From an uncultured Polyangiaceae bacterium (GTDB taxonomy: Bacteria; Myxococcota_A; Polyangia; Polyangiales; Polyangiaceae), in contig CAYTJL010000046.1 in assembly GCA_964437785.1 (NCBI GenBank), forward strand, positions 32,439 through 47,286: 14,848 bases of DNA, read 5' to 3'. Of this stretch, positions 1 to 4,574 are shown in pieces (within the stretch, counting starts at the first letter, position 1; the number at the start of each line of letters is the position of its first letter). The notes beneath the pieces are model-generated. The model was not told the origin of the DNA. It saw only the letters and a list, made by a program, of their open reading frames with translations, and searched no databases. The position numbers and the translations under genes are program-made.

Positions 1-1259
1 CGATCGAGCCCAAGATCCTCCACCGCCTGGTGGAGGAGCTGCCCGCGCAACGGGTGATGAAGCTCTTCGAGGGTCTGCGCGTGAGCGCGCCCGAGAGCGG
101 CGTCCGCAAGGCGAACAACGCACGTACGCGCAAGCTCATCCTGCGGACCATCCTCGGCTCGCCGCGGCTCGAGCTGTGGTCGGTCAAGTACCGCGCCAAG
201 ATCGTCTCGGCCCTGCGCCACGCGTGGGGCGAGCGGAGGCTCGGTATCGTCCGGTCGATCCTGCAAAAGCCCGATGAGGCCCGCGACGCGAAGGAGCGCG
301 CGATCTTGCGCTCGCTCATCGACAAGCACGCTCCGCTCGACCGCGAGCGGGTGTACGAGTGCGTCGCGTTCATCCTCGGGATCCGCGAGCGCGTCACCCT
401 CCCTCTGCTCCTCGGCTTCCAGCTCGCCAAGGTCGATTTGACCGCCGGCCACAAGCTGCCTCCCGAGGTCTTGGAGGGTATCCGCGGCCGTTACCACAGC
501 GGCGTCGACAAGGCAGAGGTCCTCCGCCTCACCGCAGGATCGCTCACCAAGGCACAACGGCTCACCGTCCAGAAGAGGGCGGCCGAGGCGGGCGTCGTGG
601 TGGAGATGGACCCCTCGCACTACGACGCGGTCAAGCTCTATGTCTACGCCTTCGAGAACGGGCTCACCCCCGCCATCGAGGAGGCGCTCGACAAGCGGGC
701 TCGGCGCGCGGCGGCGGCCTTCCCGGCGCGTTTTTCGCGGATTGGCATCCTCGTCGACGCGTCTCGGTCCATGATGGGCGGCGGTGATCAAAAGCTCCGT
801 CCCATGGCCATCGCGCTCGCGCTCCGCGACATGCTCATGCACGTCGCAGACGCGCGCGTGGTCTACGCGGGTGGCGAGTCGGGCGCCGTCAACGGCAGCG
901 CGAGGCTCATGCGGCCGAGCGGGGACTCCTCGCTCTCCGAGGGGCTCTTGACGCTGCTCGGCGGCGACGCCGAGGCCATCTTCGTGATCAGCGATGGTTA
1001 CGAGAACCGCCCTCGCGGCCGCTTCGCGGAGACCCTCTCCGCGGCGCGGAGCATCGGTGTGAGCACGCCCGTCTACCACCTCTCTCCGGTCTTCGCGGCC
1101 GAGTCGGGCGGCGTGCGCGCGCTCGCCGAGGGCCTCGCGCCGACCCTCCCCGCGGTAAGCCCGGAGGCGCTCGGTATCTCGATGTTGCGCGGCCTCCTCG
1201 CGGCCGATCCCATTCGTGGGCTCGTGTCGCTGGTCCACGCCGCGCTCCCCCGTGTCTAA
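1..1259 (+). CDS. vWA-domain protein with MIDAS motif, 5' end probably outside the window
   Basis: The frame is open from nt 3 through the GTG at 30, so the gene likely starts upstream. The C-terminal half has GILVDASRSM (DxSxS MIDAS) and later IFVISDGYEN, typical of a von Willebrand A fold. The N-terminal part is helical and Arg/Leu-rich. A TROVE/Ro-like relationship is possible but cannot be shown by eye. Confidence 0.6.
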   Translation, partial: IEPKILHRLVEELPAQRVMKLFEGLRVSAPESGVRKANNARTRKLILRTILGSPRLELWSVKYRAKIVSALRHAWGERRLGIVRSILQKPDEARDAKERAILRSLIDKHAPLDRERVYECVAFILGIRERVTLPLLLGFQLAKVDLTAGHKLPPEVLEGIRGRYHSGVDKAEVLRLTAGSLTKAQRLTVQKRAAEAGVVVEMDPSHYDAVKLYVYAFENGLTPAIEEALDKRARRAAAAFPARFSRIGILVDASRSMMGGGDQKLRPMAIALALRDMLMHVADARVVYAGGESGAVNGSARLMRPSGDSSLSEGLLTLLGGDAEAIFVISDGYENRPRGRFAETLSAARSIGVSTPVYHLSPVFAAESGGVRALAEGLAPTLPAVSPEALGISMLRGLLAADPIRGLVSLVHAALPRV

Positions 1260-1273
1260 AGGAGGATCAAACC

Positions 1274-2227
1274 ATGTCTCTCACCGTTCATGAGATCCTT
1301 CGGGGCACCGGCGTTGGGCACGTGCAGAGCGCGGGCCTCATGCAGGTGATCCCGATCCTCGGCGAGGATGACGACACGTTTGCTCCCCCGGAGCTCACGG
1401 TCGGCACCTCGGGATATGGCACCGTCCTTCTGCGCAACGACAGTGACCGGCCCACCATCGTCCCCACGGCGGCGGGCTGGGTCGTGGCGCAGAGGGCACA
1501 GGACCACGCGATCGGCAGCGGCGTCTTCTTGAAGCCCAAGGAGAGCCGCGCCATCGACACCGCGATGTGCGTGCAGCAAGGCCAAGGCGGATACATCGCA
1601 GAGGACAAGCACGGGATGCTCATCCTGCCTGCCGCCCTCCGGCCCAAGGCGCTCAGCGTGCGGAACGAGAAGAGCTTCAACAAGCTCTGGGCCAGCATCA
1701 CCGAGCTCAACAAGAGCGTTGGTCTCACCGAGGCTGGACATCTCGAGTACTTCCTCAAGGGCTTCCAAAAGGAGCTCGATGAGTTCGTCGCCGAGTTCGA
1801 GATCGTGCCGAAGCAACGCGGCGCGATCATCCTCATCGGCGGCGAGATCGCGGGCGTCGAGATCGCCCCTTCGAGCGCCTATTGGGAGGTCGTGTGGACC
1901 CCGCTCATCCGGGTCTGCTACGGCTCTCTCGCGGCGAGCGCGCGCAAGCGCGGCCTCCAAAGGCCACAGACCCGCGCGCCGCTGCGGCTCGTCGATCGCT
2001 CGATTGACGGCATCCGCGACGCGCTCGTTCGCGCCGAAGAGGAGGAGGGTCGCTCGGTCATGCGCACGTTCGCTGCGCTGCACGGGCTGCCCTTCGAGGT
2101 CGCCGGGGCCCCCGACGACCGCATCAACGGCATCCTGCTCACCACGGTCGCGAACGCGCGGCTCAGCGGGCAAGTCGTGAGGACCGGCTTCAAGGTCCTC
2201 TACGCCTCGCTCTGCGCGGCCGCCTGA
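1274..2227 (+). CDS. conserved hypothetical protein, coupled to the vWA gene
   Basis: AGGAGG (1260-1265) lies 8 nt before ATG 1274 and directly after the TAA of the upstream gene. The codon bias is GC3-rich. Motifs GLMQVIPILGEDD, LLRNDSDRPTIVPTAAGWVV and AMCVQQGQGGY resemble, from memory only, an uncharacterised bacterial family labelled ARPP-1-like or DUF in databases. No catalytic motif was recognised. Confidence 0.6.
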   Translation: MSLTVHEILRGTGVGHVQSAGLMQVIPILGEDDDTFAPPELTVGTSGYGTVLLRNDSDRPTIVPTAAGWVVAQRAQDHAIGSGVFLKPKESRAIDTAMCVQQGQGGYIAEDKHGMLILPAALRPKALSVRNEKSFNKLWASITELNKSVGLTEAGHLEYFLKGFQKELDEFVAEFEIVPKQRGAIILIGGEIAGVEIAPSSAYWEVVWTPLIRVCYGSLAASARKRGLQRPQTRAPLRLVDRSIDGIRDALVRAEEEEGRSVMRTFAALHGLPFEVAGAPDDRINGILLTTVANARLSGQVVRTGFKVLYASLCAAA

Positions 2228-2287: not shown

Positions 2288-2361
2288 GTCCCTATCGGCT
2301 ACCTTGGATAGGCTTTCGGAACCTCACTCCGAAGAAGCGGGTTCGACTCCCGCTGGGGACG
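2288..2361 (+). tRNA. tRNA-Glu(CUC), C33 variant
   Basis: Acceptor GTCCCTA/TGGGGAC with one G.U pair. D-stem GGCT/GGCT (two G.U) with a 10-nt GG-containing loop. Anticodon stem TCGGA/TCCGA, loop ACCTCAC, anticodon 2323-2325. T-arm GCGGG-TTCGACT-CCCGC. Discriminator G followed by CC. The ends (GTCCC...GGGGACGCC) resemble bacterial tRNA-Glu. Confidence 0.8.
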
Positions 2362-2411
2362 CCGTTACGCCGAGCTGCCGAGAGACCTCTCGCTCGCGGC
2401 AGCTCTCCTTT

Positions 2412-2481
2412 CTCTCTGTCTCAGCGGACTGAGCACCGGGCTACGAACTCGGTTGTCGAGGTTCAACTCCTCGCAGAGAGG
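2412..2481 (+). tRNA. tRNA-Arg(ACG) with minimal D-arm
   Basis: Perfect acceptor CTCTCTG/CAGAGAG. D-arm CTCAG-CGGA-CTGAG (2420-2433), a tetraloop. Anticodon stem CCGGG/CTCGG, loop CTACGAA, anticodon 2443-2445. T-arm CGAGG-TTCAACT-CCTCG. Length 70 nt. Confidence 0.7.
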
Positions 2482-2487
2482 CTATGT

Positions 2488-2558
2488 ATCCCCGTCCCGG
2501 CGGCCCCGGGCGCGAGCCTCCGAAGCTCGTTGTTCGGGTTCGACTCCCGGCGGGGGTG
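2488..2558 (+). tRNA. tRNA-Arg(CCG) with minimal D-arm
   Basis: Acceptor ATCCCCG/CGGGGGT with one G.U. D-arm CCCGG-CGGCC-CCGGG (2496-2510). Anticodon stem CGAGC/GCTCG, loop CTCCGAA, anticodon 2520-2522. T-arm TCGGG-TTCGACT-CCCGG. Discriminator G followed by CC. Length 71 nt. Confidence 0.7.
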
Positions 2559-2568
2559 CCGTGATTTT

Positions 2569-2649
2569 GGGGCGAGCGCCGGCGCGCAGGTTGGTCTGTA
2601 AAACCGACGTCTTTGGACATGTTGGGTTCAACTCCCAGGCGCCCCACCA
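2569..2649 (+). tRNA. tRNA-Tyr(GUA), class II variable arm, minimal D-arm, CCA encoded
   Basis: Acceptor GGGGCG(A)/(G)CGCCCC. D-arm GCGC-CGGC-GCGC (2576-2587). Anticodon stem TTGGT/ACCGA, loop CTGTAAA, anticodon 2598-2600. Long variable arm GTC-TTTG-GAC (2609-2618). T-arm TTGGG-TTCAACT-CCCAG. A73 followed by CCA (2647-2649). Confidence 0.7.
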
Positions 2650-2655
2650 ACGTTA

Positions 2656-2724
2656 TGCAGGAAGGGAAGGTCCCGGCGGAGGCTCATACCCTCGGCTCTG
2701 CAAGTTCGATTCTTGCTCCTGCTA
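2656..2724 (+). tRNA. tRNA with CAU anticodon (Met or Ile2 type), minimal D-arm, U1.U72 mismatch
   Basis: Acceptor (T)GCAGGA/TCCTGC(T). D-arm GGGA-AGG-TCCC (2664-2674). Anticodon stem (G)GAGG/CCTC(G), loop CTCATAC, anticodon 2685-2687. T-arm GCAAG-TTCGATT-CTTGC. A73 followed by CC. Length 69 nt. Confidence 0.6.
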
Positions 2725-2725
2725 C

Positions 2726-2794
2726 CGCGATGACTCATGGTGAGGGGCGGCTCTCATAAGGCCGGCCGCGAGGGTTCGAATCCCTCCATCGCGA
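2726..2794 (+). tRNA. tRNA with CAU anticodon (Met or Ile2 type), minimal D-arm
   Basis: Perfect acceptor CGCGATG/CATCGCG. D-arm CTCA-TGG-TGAG (2734-2744). Anticodon stem CGGCT/GGCCG, loop CTCATAA, anticodon 2755-2757. T-arm GAGGG-TTCGAAT-CCCTC. A73 followed by CC. It starts 1 nt after the discriminator of the previous tRNA. Confidence 0.7.
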
Positions 2795-2798
2795 CCCT

Positions 2799-2875
2799 CT
2801 GGGTGTGGCTCAATTTGGTAGAGCGCCGGCGTCGGGAGCCGGAAGTTGGGGGTTCGAATCCCTCCATCCAGACCA
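2799..2875 (+). tRNA. tRNA-Pro(CGG), canonical cloverleaf, CCA encoded
   Basis: Acceptor CTGGGTG/CATCCAG. D-arm GCTC-AATTTGGTA-GAGC. Anticodon stem CCGGC/GCCGG, loop GTCGGGA (U33, G37), anticodon 2833-2835. T-arm GGGGG-TTCGAAT-CCCTC. C1-G72 and A73 as in bacterial tRNA-Pro. CCA at 2873-2875. Confidence 0.9.
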
Positions 2876-2876
2876 C

Positions 2877-2949
2877 GCGGGATGAGCGAGCTGGCGAACG
2901 CAGCGGTCCCACACACCGCCTCCGCAGGGTTCGATCCCCTGATCCCGCA
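2877..2949 (+). tRNA. tRNA-Val(CAC), C33 variant
   Basis: Perfect acceptor GCGGGAT/ATCCCGC. 3-bp D-stem GCG/CGC with a GG-containing loop. Anticodon stem GCGGT/ACCGC, loop CCCACAC, anticodon 2910-2912. T-arm CAGGG-TTCGATC-CCCTG. A73 followed by CC. Confidence 0.8.
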
Positions 2950-2962
2950 CCGAAGAACCAAC

Positions 2963-3038
2963 GGGGTATGATGGCCTGGTTGACCTGAGCTCTCCGATAA
3001 AGAGCTCGCGCCGCGTTCGATCCGCGGATACCCCACCA
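2963..3038 (+). tRNA. tRNA-Ile(GAU), C33 variant, CCA encoded
   Basis: Perfect acceptor GGGGTAT/ATACCCC. Weak D-stem with a TGGTTG loop. Anticodon stem GCTCT/AGAGC (extendable to 7 bp), loop CCGATAA, anticodon 2996-2998. T-arm CCGCG-TTCGATC-CGCGG. A73 followed by CCA (3036-3038). Confidence 0.8.
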
Positions 3039-3045
3039 TCACGAT

Positions 3046-3118
3046 GCGGGGCTCGCTCTCTGGCGAGAGCACCGGCGCGACGAGCCGGCCGAGGTGGGTT
3101 CGATCCCCACGCCCCGCA
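3046..3118 (+). tRNA. tRNA-Val(GAC), C33 variant
   Basis: Perfect acceptor GCGGGGC/GCCCCGC. D-arm GCTC-TCTGGCGA-GAGC. Anticodon stem CCGGC/GCCGG, loop GCGACGA, anticodon 3079-3081. T-arm GTGGG-TTCGATC-CCCAC. A73 followed by CC. Confidence 0.8.
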
Positions 3119-3123
3119 CCCAT

Positions 3124-3200
3124 GTCCATGTGGCGAAACTGGCAACCGCAACGGTCTCAGAAACCGTGATTTGAGGGTTCGAATCCCTCCGTGGACACCA
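3124..3200 (+). tRNA. tRNA-Leu(CAG) with short (5-nt) variable region, CCA encoded
   Basis: Acceptor GTCCATG/CGTGGAC with one G.U. Leu-type D-arm GCG-AAACTGGCAAC-CGC. Anticodon stem ACGGT/ACCGT, loop CTCAGAA, anticodon 3158-3160. Variable region GATTT only. T-arm GAGGG-TTCGAAT-CCCTC. A73 followed by CCA. Confidence 0.8.
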
Positions 3201-3223: not shown

Positions 3224-3298
3224 GTCCGTGTGGCGAAATTGGCAAACGCAGCGGCCTCAAACCCCGCCAATATGAGGGTTCGACTCCCTCCATGGACA
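3224..3298 (+). tRNA. tRNA-Leu(CAA) with short variable region
   Basis: Close paralog of the previous gene. Acceptor GTCCGTG/CATGGAC with one G.U. D-arm GCG-AAATTGGCAAA-CGC. Anticodon stem GCGG(C)/(C)CCGC with a C.C at 31:39, loop CTCAAAC, anticodon 3258-3260. 6-nt variable region. T-arm GAGGG-TTCGACT-CCCTC. A73 followed by CC. Confidence 0.75.
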
Positions 3299-3311
3299 CC
3301 CGCAATTTTAC

Positions 3312-3396
3312 GTCACCGTGGCGGAATTTGGCATACGCGACGGCCTGAGAAGCCGTGCCCGAAATGGGTATGTGGGTTCGACCCCCACCGGTGACA
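3312..3396 (+). tRNA. tRNA-Leu(GAG), canonical class II with long variable arm
   Basis: Perfect acceptor GTCACCG/CGGTGAC. D-arm GCG-GAATTTGGCATA-CGC. Anticodon stem ACGGC/GCCGT, loop CTGAGAA, anticodon 3347-3349. 15-nt variable arm CCC-GAAAT-GGG. T-arm GTGGG-TTCGACC-CCCAC. A73 followed by CC. Length 85 nt. Confidence 0.88.
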
Positions 3397-3471
3397 CCGC
3401 GCGAAGCAGCGCCCTTTGGAGAAAAACAAGCCATGAAAAAGAAGAGGTAGAGGTCAATAAACCTCGAGGAG

Positions 3472-3999
3472 ATGGAGAGTATGAGCGCGCAGACATTGCT
3501 CCTGACACCGTGGATGATGCCCCACAAGGTCATCTCCTGGCAGACCGCCGTCACCATGACATTTTTGGGGAAGGTCGAGGTCATCGCCGAATACGACGAG
3601 GCCATCTGCTCCCCCAGCACCAGCATCCGCACGCCGTCCGTCGTCCGGCTCAAGAGGCCGCTCGGCGACATGAAGCGTGGAGTCAAGTTCTCCCGCGTCA
3701 ACGTCTTCGTGCGCGACGGGTTCCGGTGCCAATACTGCGGTGACAAAAAGCGTGTCTCCGAGCTCAACTACGACCACGTCGTGCCCCGCGTGCAAGGCGG
3801 AAGGACCATCTGGGAGAACATCGTGACCTCCTGCTACGGCTGCAACTCTCGCAAGAGGGGCCGCACCCCGGAGCAGGCAGGAATGATGCTCCTCCGCAAG
3901 CCGGTCAAGCCGAAGTGGCTCCCGATGACCCCCGTCCTCCCACGGCACGGCAACGTGCCGGACGCGTGGGCCTCCTACTGCGCGGGCATGCTCCAGTGA
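3472..3999 (+). CDS. HNH endonuclease (small stand-alone HNH/McrA-like family)
   Basis: CQYCG...LNYDHVVPRVQGG...WENIVTSCYGCNSRK is a classic CxxC-H-N-CxxC HNH zinc-finger nuclease motif. The alternative start ATG 3481 has better spacing to GAGGAG at 3466-3471. The gene sits inside the tRNA array on the same strand. Confidence 0.88.
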   Translation: MESMSAQTLLLTPWMMPHKVISWQTAVTMTFLGKVEVIAEYDEAICSPSTSIRTPSVVRLKRPLGDMKRGVKFSRVNVFVRDGFRCQYCGDKKRVSELNYDHVVPRVQGGRTIWENIVTSCYGCNSRKRGRTPEQAGMMLLRKPVKPKWLPMTPVLPRHGNVPDAWASYCAGMLQ

Positions 4000-4015: not shown

Positions 4016-4053
4016 ACCTCGCTCGCCCCTCCCCAACGAGGGGCGAGCGGGGT
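4016..4053 (+). terminator. strong GC hairpin downstream of the HNH gene (terminator or processing structure)
   Basis: CGCTCGCCCCTC (4020-4031) pairs perfectly with GAGGGGCGAGCG (4038-4049) around the loop CCCAAC. The stem is extendable to about 16 bp. A T5 run lies at 4068-4072, 18 nt further on and not adjacent. Confidence 0.5.
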
Positions 4054-4072
4054 CGCCTCTCAACATCTTTTT

Positions 4073-4160
4073 AGAAGGTGAACCGGCCGGGGCGCCGGGC
4101 CTGTCTGGAACACAGCGCGAACGGCGATGACCGTTTGAGGATCGAGACCTCCGCCTTCTG
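4073..4160 (+). tRNA. tRNA-Ser(GGA), 8/4 (Sec/allo-tRNA-like) architecture
   Basis: 8-bp acceptor AGAAGGTG/CGCCTTCT with one G.U. Linker AA. 5-bp D-stem CCGGC/GCCGG with a 6-nt loop. Anticodon stem CTGT/ACAG, loop CTGGAAC, anticodon 4107-4109. Variable arm AACGG-CGATGA-CCGTT. 4-bp T-stem GAGG/CCTC with loop ATCGAGA. G73 followed by CC. Confidence 0.75.
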
Positions 4161-4205
4161 CCCGTCCTTACGAATGGGACCCCATCGTGAATCAGCGTCG
4201 GAATT

Positions 4206-4292
4206 GGAAGCGTGAATCGGCCGGGGCGCCGAGCCCGCCTTGAAAGCGGTGCGCACCCTTCGGGGTGTGGGGATCGAGACCTCCACCTTCCA
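4206..4292 (+). tRNA. tRNA-Ser(UGA), 8/4-like architecture
   Basis: Acceptor GGAAG(C)GTG/CACCTTCC, 8 bp plus one bulged C. D-stem TCGGC/GCCGA. Anticodon stem CCGC/GCGG, loop CTTGAAA, anticodon 4241-4243. Variable arm CACCC-TTCG-GGGTG. T-stem GGGG/CCTC with loop ATCGAGA. A73 followed by CC. Confidence 0.72.
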
Positions 4293-4316
4293 CCCCTCGT
4301 TTTTTACTGAACCTTT

Positions 4317-4404
4317 GGAAGCGTGAATCGGCCGGGGAGCCGAGCCTGCCTCGAAAGCAGTGCGCACCCCTTCGGGGTGTGGGGATCGAGACCTCCACCT
4401 TCCG
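4317..4404 (+). tRNA. tRNA-Ser(CGA), 8/4-like architecture
   Basis: Near-duplicate of the 4206-4292 gene. Same acceptor with a bulged C. D-stem TCGGC/GCCGA. Anticodon stem CTGC/GCAG, loop CTCGAAA, anticodon 4352-4354. Variable arm with a TTCG-type loop. T-stem GGGG/CCTC with loop ATCGAGA. G73 followed by CC. Confidence 0.72.
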
Positions 4405-4409
4405 CCTCT

Positions 4410-4494
4410 GGAAGCTGAATCGGCGGCGGCGCCGAGCCCGGCTGCTAACCGGTGTGTGCCTCATCGGCATGGTGTTCGACTCACCCTGCTTCCG
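4410..4494 (+). tRNA. tRNA-Ser(GCU), 8/4 architecture with 6-bp D-stem and tetraloop
   Basis: Acceptor GGAAGCTG/CTGCTTCC, 8 positions with one T.T. D-arm TCGGCG-GCGG-CGCCGA. Anticodon stem CCGG/CCGG, loop CTGCTAA, anticodon 4444-4446. Variable arm TGCC-TCATC-GGCA. 4-bp T-stem GGTG/CACC with canonical loop TTCGACT. G73 followed by CC. Confidence 0.75.
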
Positions 4495-4499
4495 CCTCT

Positions 4500-4574
4500 G
4501 CGGGGCTCGTTCAACGGGCAGGACAGTAGGCTTTGACCCTATCAATCGCGGTTCGAATCCGCGGCCCCGTGCCA
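4500..4574 (+). tRNA. tRNA-Gln(UUG), canonical cloverleaf, CCA encoded
   Basis: Acceptor GCGGGGC/GCCCCGT with G1.U72. D-arm GTTC-AACGGGCA-GGAC. Anticodon stem GTAGG/CCTAT, loop CTTTGAC, anticodon 4533-4535. T-arm CGCGG-TTCGAAT-CCGCG. G73 followed by CCA. A weak 1:72 pair plus G73 fits bacterial tRNA-Gln. Confidence 0.85.

Follow-up and report, generated by a model that had tools for sequence, protein, structure and literature searches.

Organisation of the locus

The window, i.e. the whole stretch of DNA analysed here (14,848 nucleotides; positions 32,439 to 47,286 of contig CAYTJL010000046.1, assembly GCA_964437785.1 of an uncultured Polyangiaceae bacterium), harbours an array of at least 18 tRNA genes within 2.3 kb, the upstream part of which is cut by the window edge. 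Four of these tRNAs carry C at position 33 (C33), namely tRNA-Glu(CUC) (2288..2363; C33 at 2322, loop ACCUCAC; 38.8 bits with the Rfam tRNA model), tRNA-Val(CAC) (2877..2951; C33 at 2909, loop CCCACAC), tRNA-Ile(GAU) (2963..3038; C33 at 2995, loop CCGAUAA) and tRNA-Val(GAC) (3045..3122, with a canonical 7-bp acceptor stem from 3046; C33 at 3078, loop GCGACGA). In elongator tRNAs this position is almost invariantly U (U33), the listed exceptions being eukaryotic initiator tRNAs with C33 and the Candida tRNA-Ser(CAG) with G33 (PMC5041475). The affected tRNAs are members of an auxiliary array of the phage type rather than the ordinary tRNAs of the genome.

The identification of the tRNA genes rests on ARAGORN with partial support from Rfam. 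ARAGORN predicted 12 tRNA genes at its default and 16 at a relaxed threshold, all of them on the plus strand between 2288 and 4574. The array is preceded on the same strand by genes encoding a divergent Ro60-like protein (3..1259; a 418-aa open reading frame (ORF) whose N-terminus is cut by the window edge, 530 aa in the relative P0121) and a protein of the ARPP-1 family (1274..2227; Pfam PF20208).

The remaining tRNAs all have U33. Between tRNA-Glu(CUC) and the first valine gene lie tRNA-Arg(ACG) (2412..2482), tRNA-Arg(CCG) (2488..2560), tRNA-Tyr(GUA) (2568..2648; relaxed threshold, tRNA-Sec-like in Rfam with 32.8 bits), two tRNAs with CAU anticodon (2656..2726, relaxed threshold, and 2726..2796, overlapping by the single base 2726) and tRNA-Pro(CGG) with G32 (2799..2875; Rfam 62.1 bits). 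The Val-Ile-Val group is followed by tRNA-Leu(CAG) (3124..3200; Rfam 60.9 bits), tRNA-Leu(CAA) (3224..3300) and tRNA-Leu(GAG) (3312..3398), the latter with a long variable arm. A gene encoding an HNH endonuclease is embedded in the array (3472..3999, plus strand; Pfam HNH and HNH_5; PHROG HNH endonuclease, E 2.9e-29). Downstream of it are located tRNA-Ser(GGA) (4073..4162; relaxed threshold), a Ser(UGA)-like gene (4206..4294; U33 at 4240), a Ser(CGA)-like gene (4317..4406; U33 at 4351), tRNA-Ser(GCU) (4410..4496; relaxed threshold, tRNA-Sec-like in Rfam with 35.3 bits) and, as the last gene of the array, tRNA-Gln(UUG) (4500..4574; Rfam 52.6 bits). The two Ser-like genes received no ARAGORN call; they were recognised by eye, and RNAfold folds them into class II cloverleaves with a C bulging out of the acceptor stem. 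Ordinary chromosomal genes, predicted to encode a Ser/Thr kinase, an enoyl-CoA hydratase, histidine kinases and an IcmF-related protein, were detected 3' of tRNA-Gln.

Position 33 of the four tRNAs

The first-pass annotation of this DNA had reported C33 in these four tRNAs and U33 in their neighbours, and had argued that the difference was not due to misalignment. All of this is borne out by the present analysis. The ARAGORN anticodon placement, a check of the bases at the four coordinates and RNAfold agree, and each of the 14 other array tRNAs (12 ARAGORN calls, default or relaxed, and the two Ser-like genes) has U33. RNAfold predicted a stem of 5-7 bp and a 7-nt loop for each of the four anticodon arms, with the C as second loop position. 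A competing loop register with U at position 33 can be ruled out, as both programs give 7-nt loops and no alternative fold places a U there. Assuming a background frequency of 1%, the probability of finding at least four tRNAs without U33 among 18 is 2.7e-5.

The window belongs to a lineage of six assemblies (the window, L001, L002, L360, L124 and L359). Since the C33 bases are also present in the five independent assemblies from other samples, identical at all four sites in L001, L002 and L360 and at three of the four in L124 and L359, they are not assembly errors. C33 is fixed in tRNA-Glu(CUC), tRNA-Val(CAC) and tRNA-Val(GAC) of all six. Position 33 of tRNA-Ile(GAU) is C in the window, L001, L002 and L360 and T in L124 and L359; the L124 gene differs from that of the window at this position only, and the anticodon arm of L359 is otherwise identical. 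The C33 of tRNA-Ile(GAU) is thus a very recent polymorphism. The earlier description of the change as systematic therefore holds for tRNA-Glu and both tRNA-Val and was overstated for tRNA-Ile.

In other respects the four tRNAs have the canonical form of elongators according to ARAGORN, including a 7-bp acceptor stem, a 5-bp anticodon stem, a 7-nt loop and a GTTCRANYC-type T-loop; U33 is the elongator feature which the Glu, Ile and both Val tRNAs lack. They also do not belong to the initiator-type tRNAs with C33, their anticodons being CUC, CAC, GAU and GAC, and both CAU tRNAs of the array having U33.

Structural integrity of the C33 tRNAs

The structural constraint on these tRNAs was assessed for Val-CAC in an alignment of eight sequences that includes that of mycobacteriophage Bxz1; six of the eight have C33. 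The cloverleaf is paired in 97.6% of the pair cells, and 15 of the 21 pairs show a compensatory change. None of 500 shuffles reached the observed values, and sliding the structure by 1-3 columns reduced the pairing to 38-47%. Compared with the 95%-identical L124, the tRNAs of the window differ at 1-3% of their sites and the spacers at 11.8%. The discriminator bases fit the anticodons (A73 in tRNA-Val and tRNA-Ile, G73 in tRNA-Glu). In the window, Val-CAC and Ile-GAU do not reach E < 1 with the Rfam tRNA model, both being under its threshold, and Val-GAC matches the tRNA-Sec model only; several other C33 tRNAs score 45-63 bits with the tRNA model.

Several further peculiarities of the array were noticed. 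At position 8 of tRNA-Val(CAC) (window 2884) the window has G, and the Val-CAC family carries G or C in place of U8. The 3' end of tRNA-Val(GAC) (3119) reads ACCCA in the window and ACCA in L124, a difference of one base. Many of the array tRNAs lack a fully encoded CCA end, so that CCA addition would be needed. The four Ser-type genes stand in tandem (4073-4496), three of them with A at T-loop position 54 (ATCGAGA), and the bulged C in the acceptor stem of both Ser-like genes is conserved in L124. Bacterial tRNA-Leu normally has a long variable arm; tRNA-Leu(CAG) and tRNA-Leu(CAA) are 77 nt each with a variable loop of 5-6 nt, and similar short tRNA-Leu occur in the Minicystis rosea locus (L010) and in L011. 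The first CAU tRNA (2656-2726) shows a 1-72 mismatch, which is a trait of initiator tRNAs. G+C-rich inverted repeats follow the ARPP-1 gene (2245-2277) and the HNH gene (4019-4056) and might serve as terminators or as signals for processing. In the window, the Rfam scan revealed solely tRNA-type families, matches to YrlA and to the serC leader staying far below threshold; the weak serC match falls on the inverted repeat at 4019-4056.

Nature of the element and its relatives

The C33 tRNAs belong to an auxiliary tRNA array unit of the phage type, which is located within a Polyangiales-like chromosome. Tran 2016 (PMC4758250) defines a tRNA array unit as a group of no fewer than 20 tRNA genes with two or more of them per kb. 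The array agrees with this in size and density, taking together the window with 18 genes in 2.3 kb and L359, a close relative with the same backbone, with 27 ARAGORN calls in 6.8 kb. The latter encodes 11 extra tRNAs upstream of the protein pair, including a second Glu-CUC that carries U33. An array of 55 tRNAs in 20 kb was found in Minicystis rosea (L010, CP016211). Array units described in Mycobacterium consist of 26-27 tRNAs with one conserved embedded HNH gene, are redundant with the chromosomal tRNAs and have been proposed to play a role in antidefence (PMC12803027).

The HNH gene of the window has tblastn matches in 17 other loci carrying this island. Its matches to PtuB-like proteins are weak and generic, and it looks like a homing-type endonuclease as found in the tRNA arrays of phage T5.

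The product of the ARPP-1 gene matches PF20208 with 103.5 bits (cut-off 27), and 460 homologues were found. C99 and Q104 are invariant, corresponding to the Cys and Gln described in PMC9503650. Homologues with 37-63% identity are encoded in M. rosea and many Myxococcota assemblies, and in nearly all of the Myxococcota genome loci found the ARPP-1 gene is embedded in large arrays of tRNA genes on the same strand. ARPP proteins have been described as probable enzymes with ribose moieties as their target, in conflict systems centred on ADP-ribose (PMC9503650). No gene for an ADP-ribosylglycohydrolase or a rhodanese-phosphatase was detected next to ARPP-1 here; its surroundings are made up of the Ro60-like gene and tRNA genes instead, and PMC9503650 lists no ARPP context with a Ro60-like neighbour.

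The Ro60-like ORF was located directly upstream of ARPP-1 in 32 of the 32 loci examined, usually inside or beside tRNA arrays on the same strand. Searches of Pfam (including TROVE and vWA_Ro60), NCBIfam, PADLOC and the PDB gave no sequence match for ORF 3-1259; its homologues show weak matches to the Pfam family VWA_CoxE and an invariant DxSxS motif. According to an AlphaFold2 model of P0121 (a full-length relative with 97% identity; pLDDT 85.8), the protein is predicted to have the Ro60 fold consisting of a helical ring and a C-terminal vWA/MIDAS domain. The best full-length Foldseek matches of this model were the Ro60 structures 2i91 (Ro60 with misfolded RNA), 9l5y (Ro60 of Thermus phage phiLo) and 9nen (human Ro60), with a probability of 1.0 for the top three matches and 0.99 for 9nen, a best E of 6e-5 and TM-scores of only 0.31-0.46. 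Because of these matches, yet without a match at the sequence level, we call the protein Ro60-like by its predicted fold, which is not proof of membership in the family. No similarity was found to the Ro-like proteins of the phages Bxz1 and Genie2.

The M. rosea array additionally encodes a canonical Ro60 (L010 3278-4972) that matches both TROVE and vWA_Ro60 and is 47% identical to gp220 of Bxz1 and 40% to gp131 of Streptomyces phage Genie2. This identity ties the myxobacterial islands to the tRNA regions of actinophages and suggests that both share ancestry. A further Ro60 with about 25% identity was noticed in L006-L009 and L014.

The Ro60-like/ARPP-1 pair was also detected on 29 viral contigs of IMG/VR, many of them 100-435 kb in size, on 80 metagenome contigs and on the 462-kb genome of an uncultured huge phage (LR756500.1). 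On the viral contig L016 a phage-type helicase gene (phrog_1967, E 4e-117) and HNH genes adjoin the array. Homologous islands are thus encoded by viruses, while the array of the window itself is chromosomal. A BLASTN search of window 2799-3200, which covers the Pro, Val, Ile, Val and Leu genes, against cultured phages returned generic tRNA-Pro only.

Distribution of C33 beyond the window

Of the 278 array tRNAs in the window and 12 genome loci, 35 carry C33, one has G and one has A at this position. The loci in this and the following counts are linked by descent, and only identical sequences were removed. C33 is frequent in Val-CAC (5/6), Val-GAC (6/8), Gly-GCC (5/10), Leu-GAG (5/9), Tyr-GUA (4/9) and Pro-GGG (2/4), occurs in Glu-CUC (3/12) and is absent from Asp-GUC (0/15), Pro-CGG (0/13), Trp (0/9) and Leu-CAG (0/7). 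Among 630 distinct tRNAs from all loci linked to the Ro60-like/ARPP-1 pair, position 33 is U in 562, C in 61, A in six and G in one. The C33 of Ile-GAU recurs in several viral lineages with the loops TCGATAA or CCGATAA, and the huge phage LR756500 has C33 in one of its 17 tRNAs.

C33 was likewise found in arrays unrelated to that of the window. The cultured mycobacteriophage Bxz1 carries it in two of 28 tRNAs, which are Val-CAC (loop TCCACAC) and Val-GAC (TCGACAC). According to the supplement of PMC10264068, 142 and 144 of 161 C1 phages encode these Val-CAC and Val-GAC sequences, respectively. The Infernal scores are 61.3 and 58.9, and the table marks the loops as mutated in comparison with the host, leaving position 33 uncommented. 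Two exact-pattern scans of IMG/VR for the Val-CAC loop joined to the T-arm, yielding samples that lean towards high G+C, detected at least 58 canonical genes besides 14 confirmed ones with C33. The other tRNAs of these contigs have C33 in 48 of 252 cases in the first set and, among the matches listed, in 38 of 378 in the second, with three purines at position 33 among the listed matches of both sets together. In single arrays with high G+C the proportion reaches 12/37 (L170), 10/30 (L159), 7/18 (L136) and 5/10 (L302). The Ro60-like/ARPP-1 pair is absent from the examined stretches of these four. Around Val-CAC, L170, L159 and L302 share the gene order Arg-CCU, Cys, Arg-CCG, Tyr/His, Val-CAC, Arg-ACG, Val-GAC, Asp, Asn, Met.

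Since C33 is found in unrelated IMG/VR arrays and in Bxz1, it is a general trait of such mobile arrays and not of the host of the window. A quirk of the Myxococcota host lineage is unlikely, C33 being present also in viral contigs with 30-69% G+C and in a mycobacteriophage.

Evolution of position 33

Change rates per site were determined for pairs whose tRNA bodies differ by 10-20%. Positions 32 and 38 (0.42 and 0.31) change 2-3 times faster than the tRNA body (0.155), and the rates of positions 33 and 37 are 0.14 and 0.13. What is constrained at position 33 is the pyrimidine and not U itself: the position toggles between U and C and is almost closed to purines, C33 being present in about 10% of the tRNAs of such arrays. 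C33 has been inherited across long divergence in Val-CAC, Val-GAC, Gly-GCC, Leu-GAG, Tyr-GUA and Glu-CUC.

The valine tRNAs illustrate the variability of the loop. Val-GAC backbones with 82-97% identity carry the loops GCGACGA, TCGACAG or ATGACAA, GCGACAA is found on a closely related one, and Val-CAC backbones carry CCCACAC or ATCACAA. The canonical C32-U33 occurs in none of about 18 distinct Val-GAC and Val-CAC tRNAs from the loci linked to the pair. Within the lineage of the window, position 37 of Val-GAC (window 3082) is G or A. Position 32 of Ser-GGA (window 4105) is C or T among the window, L124 and L359. By a rough count, the excess of changes flanking the anticodon among near-identical relatives is not significant (two observed, about one expected).

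Possible role of C33

C33 may keep the array tRNAs usable in translation and at the same time make them poor substrates for host enzymes that read U33, to which we assign a probability of roughly 45%. The C33 tRNAs would still be charged and would still decode, C partly replacing U in the U-turn as in eukaryotic initiator tRNAs. The altered loop would be a poor substrate for tRNases cutting between positions 32 and 33 or 33 and 34, and likewise for the machineries forming t6A37 (TsaBCDE) and queuosine (Tgt). The array could hence act as a back-up pool of tRNAs surviving an attack on, or a marking of, the host tRNAs, and a cost in ribosomal efficiency would be affordable because the array tRNAs would be redundant with the housekeeping copies.

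The single steps have precedents. Tgt requires the sequence U33-G34-U35. The exchange of U33 for C abolishes the formation of t6A by TsaBCDE of E. coli, and C33 blocks it in both the bacterial and the yeast enzymes (PMC8887486). The toxin CdiA-CT EC536 cleaves between positions 32 and 33, with tRNA-Ile(GAU) among its targets (PMC11724271), and PrrC and RloC cleave 5' of the wobble base. Phage tRNAs with changes in loop or stem resist AriB (PMC12409363). The general hypothesis of nuclease-insensitive phage tRNAs has been published (PMC10264068), and elements of this kind have been proposed as their source (PMC10264068, PMC12803027).

Several observations weigh against such an escape. Neither the window nor its relatives yielded a nuclease or a modifying enzyme with specificity for U33, and PADLOC reported nothing for the Ro60-like or ARPP-1 proteins. 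C33 is spread over about 20 anticodon families in the loci linked to the pair and so points to no one specific attacker. Some tRNA-rich phages do without it (T5 0/22, Genie2 0/28). The rate of change at position 33 is close to that of an average site of the tRNA body, and the C33 of Ile-GAU arose very recently. U8 is present in only 82% of the array tRNAs, independent of C33, a value from a parse of 343 tRNAs that is to be used with caution; the T-loop figures of the same parse were set aside as biased, since ARAGORN searches for the T-loop. Finally, C33 accounts for 14%, 6.6% and 4.3% of the tRNAs in pair-linked loci of high, middle and low G+C, which makes mutation pressure on a weakly constrained site a live alternative.

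The first-pass annotation had considered C33 a plausible escape signature and had suggested a search for anticodon nucleases. C33 has since proved to be real, non-random, heritable and recurrent in related and unrelated phage-type arrays, in tRNAs under structural constraint. Pfam and PADLOC scans detected no anticodon nuclease in the window.

A serious alternative is near-neutral tolerance, in which redundancy relaxes position 33 to any pyrimidine and the change from T to C, favoured by high G+C, drifts to fixation without an adaptive role. This would explain the increase of C33 with G+C, the body-like rate at position 33, the relaxation of U8 and other conserved features, and the polymorphism of Ile-GAU, which resembles ordinary drift. 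The same array moreover contains the tRNA-Leu with short variable loops and the tRNA-Ser with odd T-loops or acceptor bulges, and the array tRNAs of Mycobacterium are described as redundant with the chromosomal ones (PMC12803027). However, C33 was kept in Val-CAC and Val-GAC across identities of 66-82% while the stems covary, although a slightly harmful state should revert. The second IMG/VR sample shows little dependence on G+C (C33 in 9%, 7.5% and 11% by G+C among the matches listed), the valine loops avoid the canonical C32-U33 altogether, and the high-G+C phage Genie2 has no C33 at all. Taking both sides into account, drift of this kind seems somewhat unlikely as the explanation of C33.

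C33 could also tune decoding, an effect that the first-pass annotation had named as an alternative. It would alter the geometry or rigidity of the loop, so that tRNAs with G34 or C34 read codons ending in C or G differently (in wobble, speed or frame) in a way that suits the genes of the element. In high-G+C loci C33 stands beside G34 in 24 of 106 tRNAs and beside C34 in ten of 113, in contrast to only one of 55 with U34, and at the decoding site U33 is known to make contact with bases 35 and 36 (PMC5041475). Viral contigs with lower G+C, however, have C33 before U34 (Ser-UGA, Pro-UGG, Thr-UGU), and many families with G34 or C34 lack it (Asp, Pro-CGG, Leu-CAG and Trp, see the counts above). 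We consider this function improbable.

A role outside translation appears slightly less probable still. The C33 molecules would in this case serve as decoys or sponges for enzymes targeting tRNAs, a function that has been raised for viral tRNAs (PMC12409363), or as tRNA-like partners of the Ro60-type proteins of the island. Such proteins are indeed embedded in the arrays, and YrlA, the partner of bacterial Ro60, mimics tRNA (PMC4201824). Yet the C33 tRNA is often the sole copy of its anticodon in a near-complete set, as in L009 for Val-GAC, Val-CAC, Gly-GCC and Leu-GAG, the acceptor stems are complete with discriminators matching the anticodon, and the only YrlA match of the window reaches 29.7 bits against a threshold of 69, with no Y RNA identified.

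It is very improbable that C33 is deaminated to U33 after transcription and the mature tRNAs are canonical. C-to-U editing of tRNAs is known elsewhere, affecting C8 in Methanopyrus and C32 in tRNA-Tyr of Vibrio, but no deaminase was detected among the conserved genes of the island and C33 occurs in many different loop contexts. Decaying pseudogenes or artefacts of the gene finder, as the poor Rfam matches of the two tRNA-Val and the tRNA-Ile of the window might suggest, are practically ruled out by the strong covariation of the stems, the far higher conservation of the tRNAs than of the spacers, the unambiguous loop register and the scores of other C33 tRNAs, including 59-61 bits in tRNAscan-SE for the Bxz1 versions.

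Returning to the escape from enzymes that read U33, a more far-reaching version would regard position 33 as a battleground, on which a large class of elongator tRNAs of mobile elements switched to C33, decoding and yet escaping tRNases as well as the t6A and queuosine machineries, and acting with RNA-handling proteins of the arrays, namely Ro60 paralogues and ARPP-1, as an attack-resistant back-up kit for translation. We consider this extended scenario doubtful.

Elements of this kind are known as tRNA array units or phage tRNA clusters, and the idea of escape has been published; the C33 variant has apparently not been discussed. In the literature on tRNA arrays and phage tRNAs we found no discussion of C33 or U33 in phage or array tRNAs and no report of such arrays in Myxococcota. 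U33 ranks among the most conserved nucleotides of all. The data point to hundreds of structurally sound C33 tRNAs of the elongator type, concentrated in mobile arrays that belong to phages, huge phages included, or to bacterial islands. If they work in translation, the requirement at position 33 is weaker than assumed, and C33 would give phage tRNA biology a simple marker, readable from the sequence, of tRNAs adapted to evade host enzymes. Two culturable systems allow this to be addressed directly, Bxz1 with its host Mycobacterium smegmatis, and Minicystis rosea DSM 24000. The link of the previously unplaced Ro60-like/ARPP-1 pair to tRNA arrays furthermore provides a lead on the function of ARPP-1.

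Comparison with known systems

The array of the window shares with tRNA array units (PMC4758250, PMC5966550, PMC8421152, PMC12803027) the dozens of closely packed tRNA genes on one strand covering most amino acids, the single conserved HNH endonuclease inside and the occurrence in chromosomes, plasmids and phages; the published units are redundant with chromosomal tRNAs. In contrast, arrays of Myxococcota, the Ro60-like/ARPP-1 pair and position 33 are all absent from those papers. HNH genes scattered among tRNA genes are also known from phage T5.

Ro60-type ring proteins encoded among tRNA genes are a feature of the Ro60/Y RNA quality-control modules represented by the Ro-like proteins of mycobacteriophages and Streptomyces phages. 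The protein of the window differs from these in being divergent, recognisable by its predicted fold only and always paired with ARPP-1.

The nuclease-insensitive phage tRNAs, represented by those of C1 mycobacteriophages against VapC-type tRNases, are likewise auxiliary tRNAs of mobile elements that duplicate host anticodons and have an altered anticodon loop region. To the same class belong tRNA-Lys, tRNA-Thr and tRNA-Asn of T5 acting against AriB of PARIS and tRNA-Tyr of T5 acting against the retron PtuAB. Bxz1, which is part of the data set of PMC10264068, carries C33 in the same two tRNA-Val as the window. The published changes, however, concern the cleavage sites of identified nucleases at positions 36-41, whereas here U33 is replaced, and in many tRNAs.

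The eukaryotic initiator tRNA-Met with C33 and the Candida tRNA-Ser(CAG) with G33 resemble the tRNAs described here in departing from U33, and they demonstrate that a base other than U is workable on the ribosome (PMC5041475). Unlike these single special-purpose tRNAs of eukaryotes, the C33 tRNAs of the arrays are encoded by bacterial or viral elements and are ordinary elongators, among them Glu, Val, Ile and many others.

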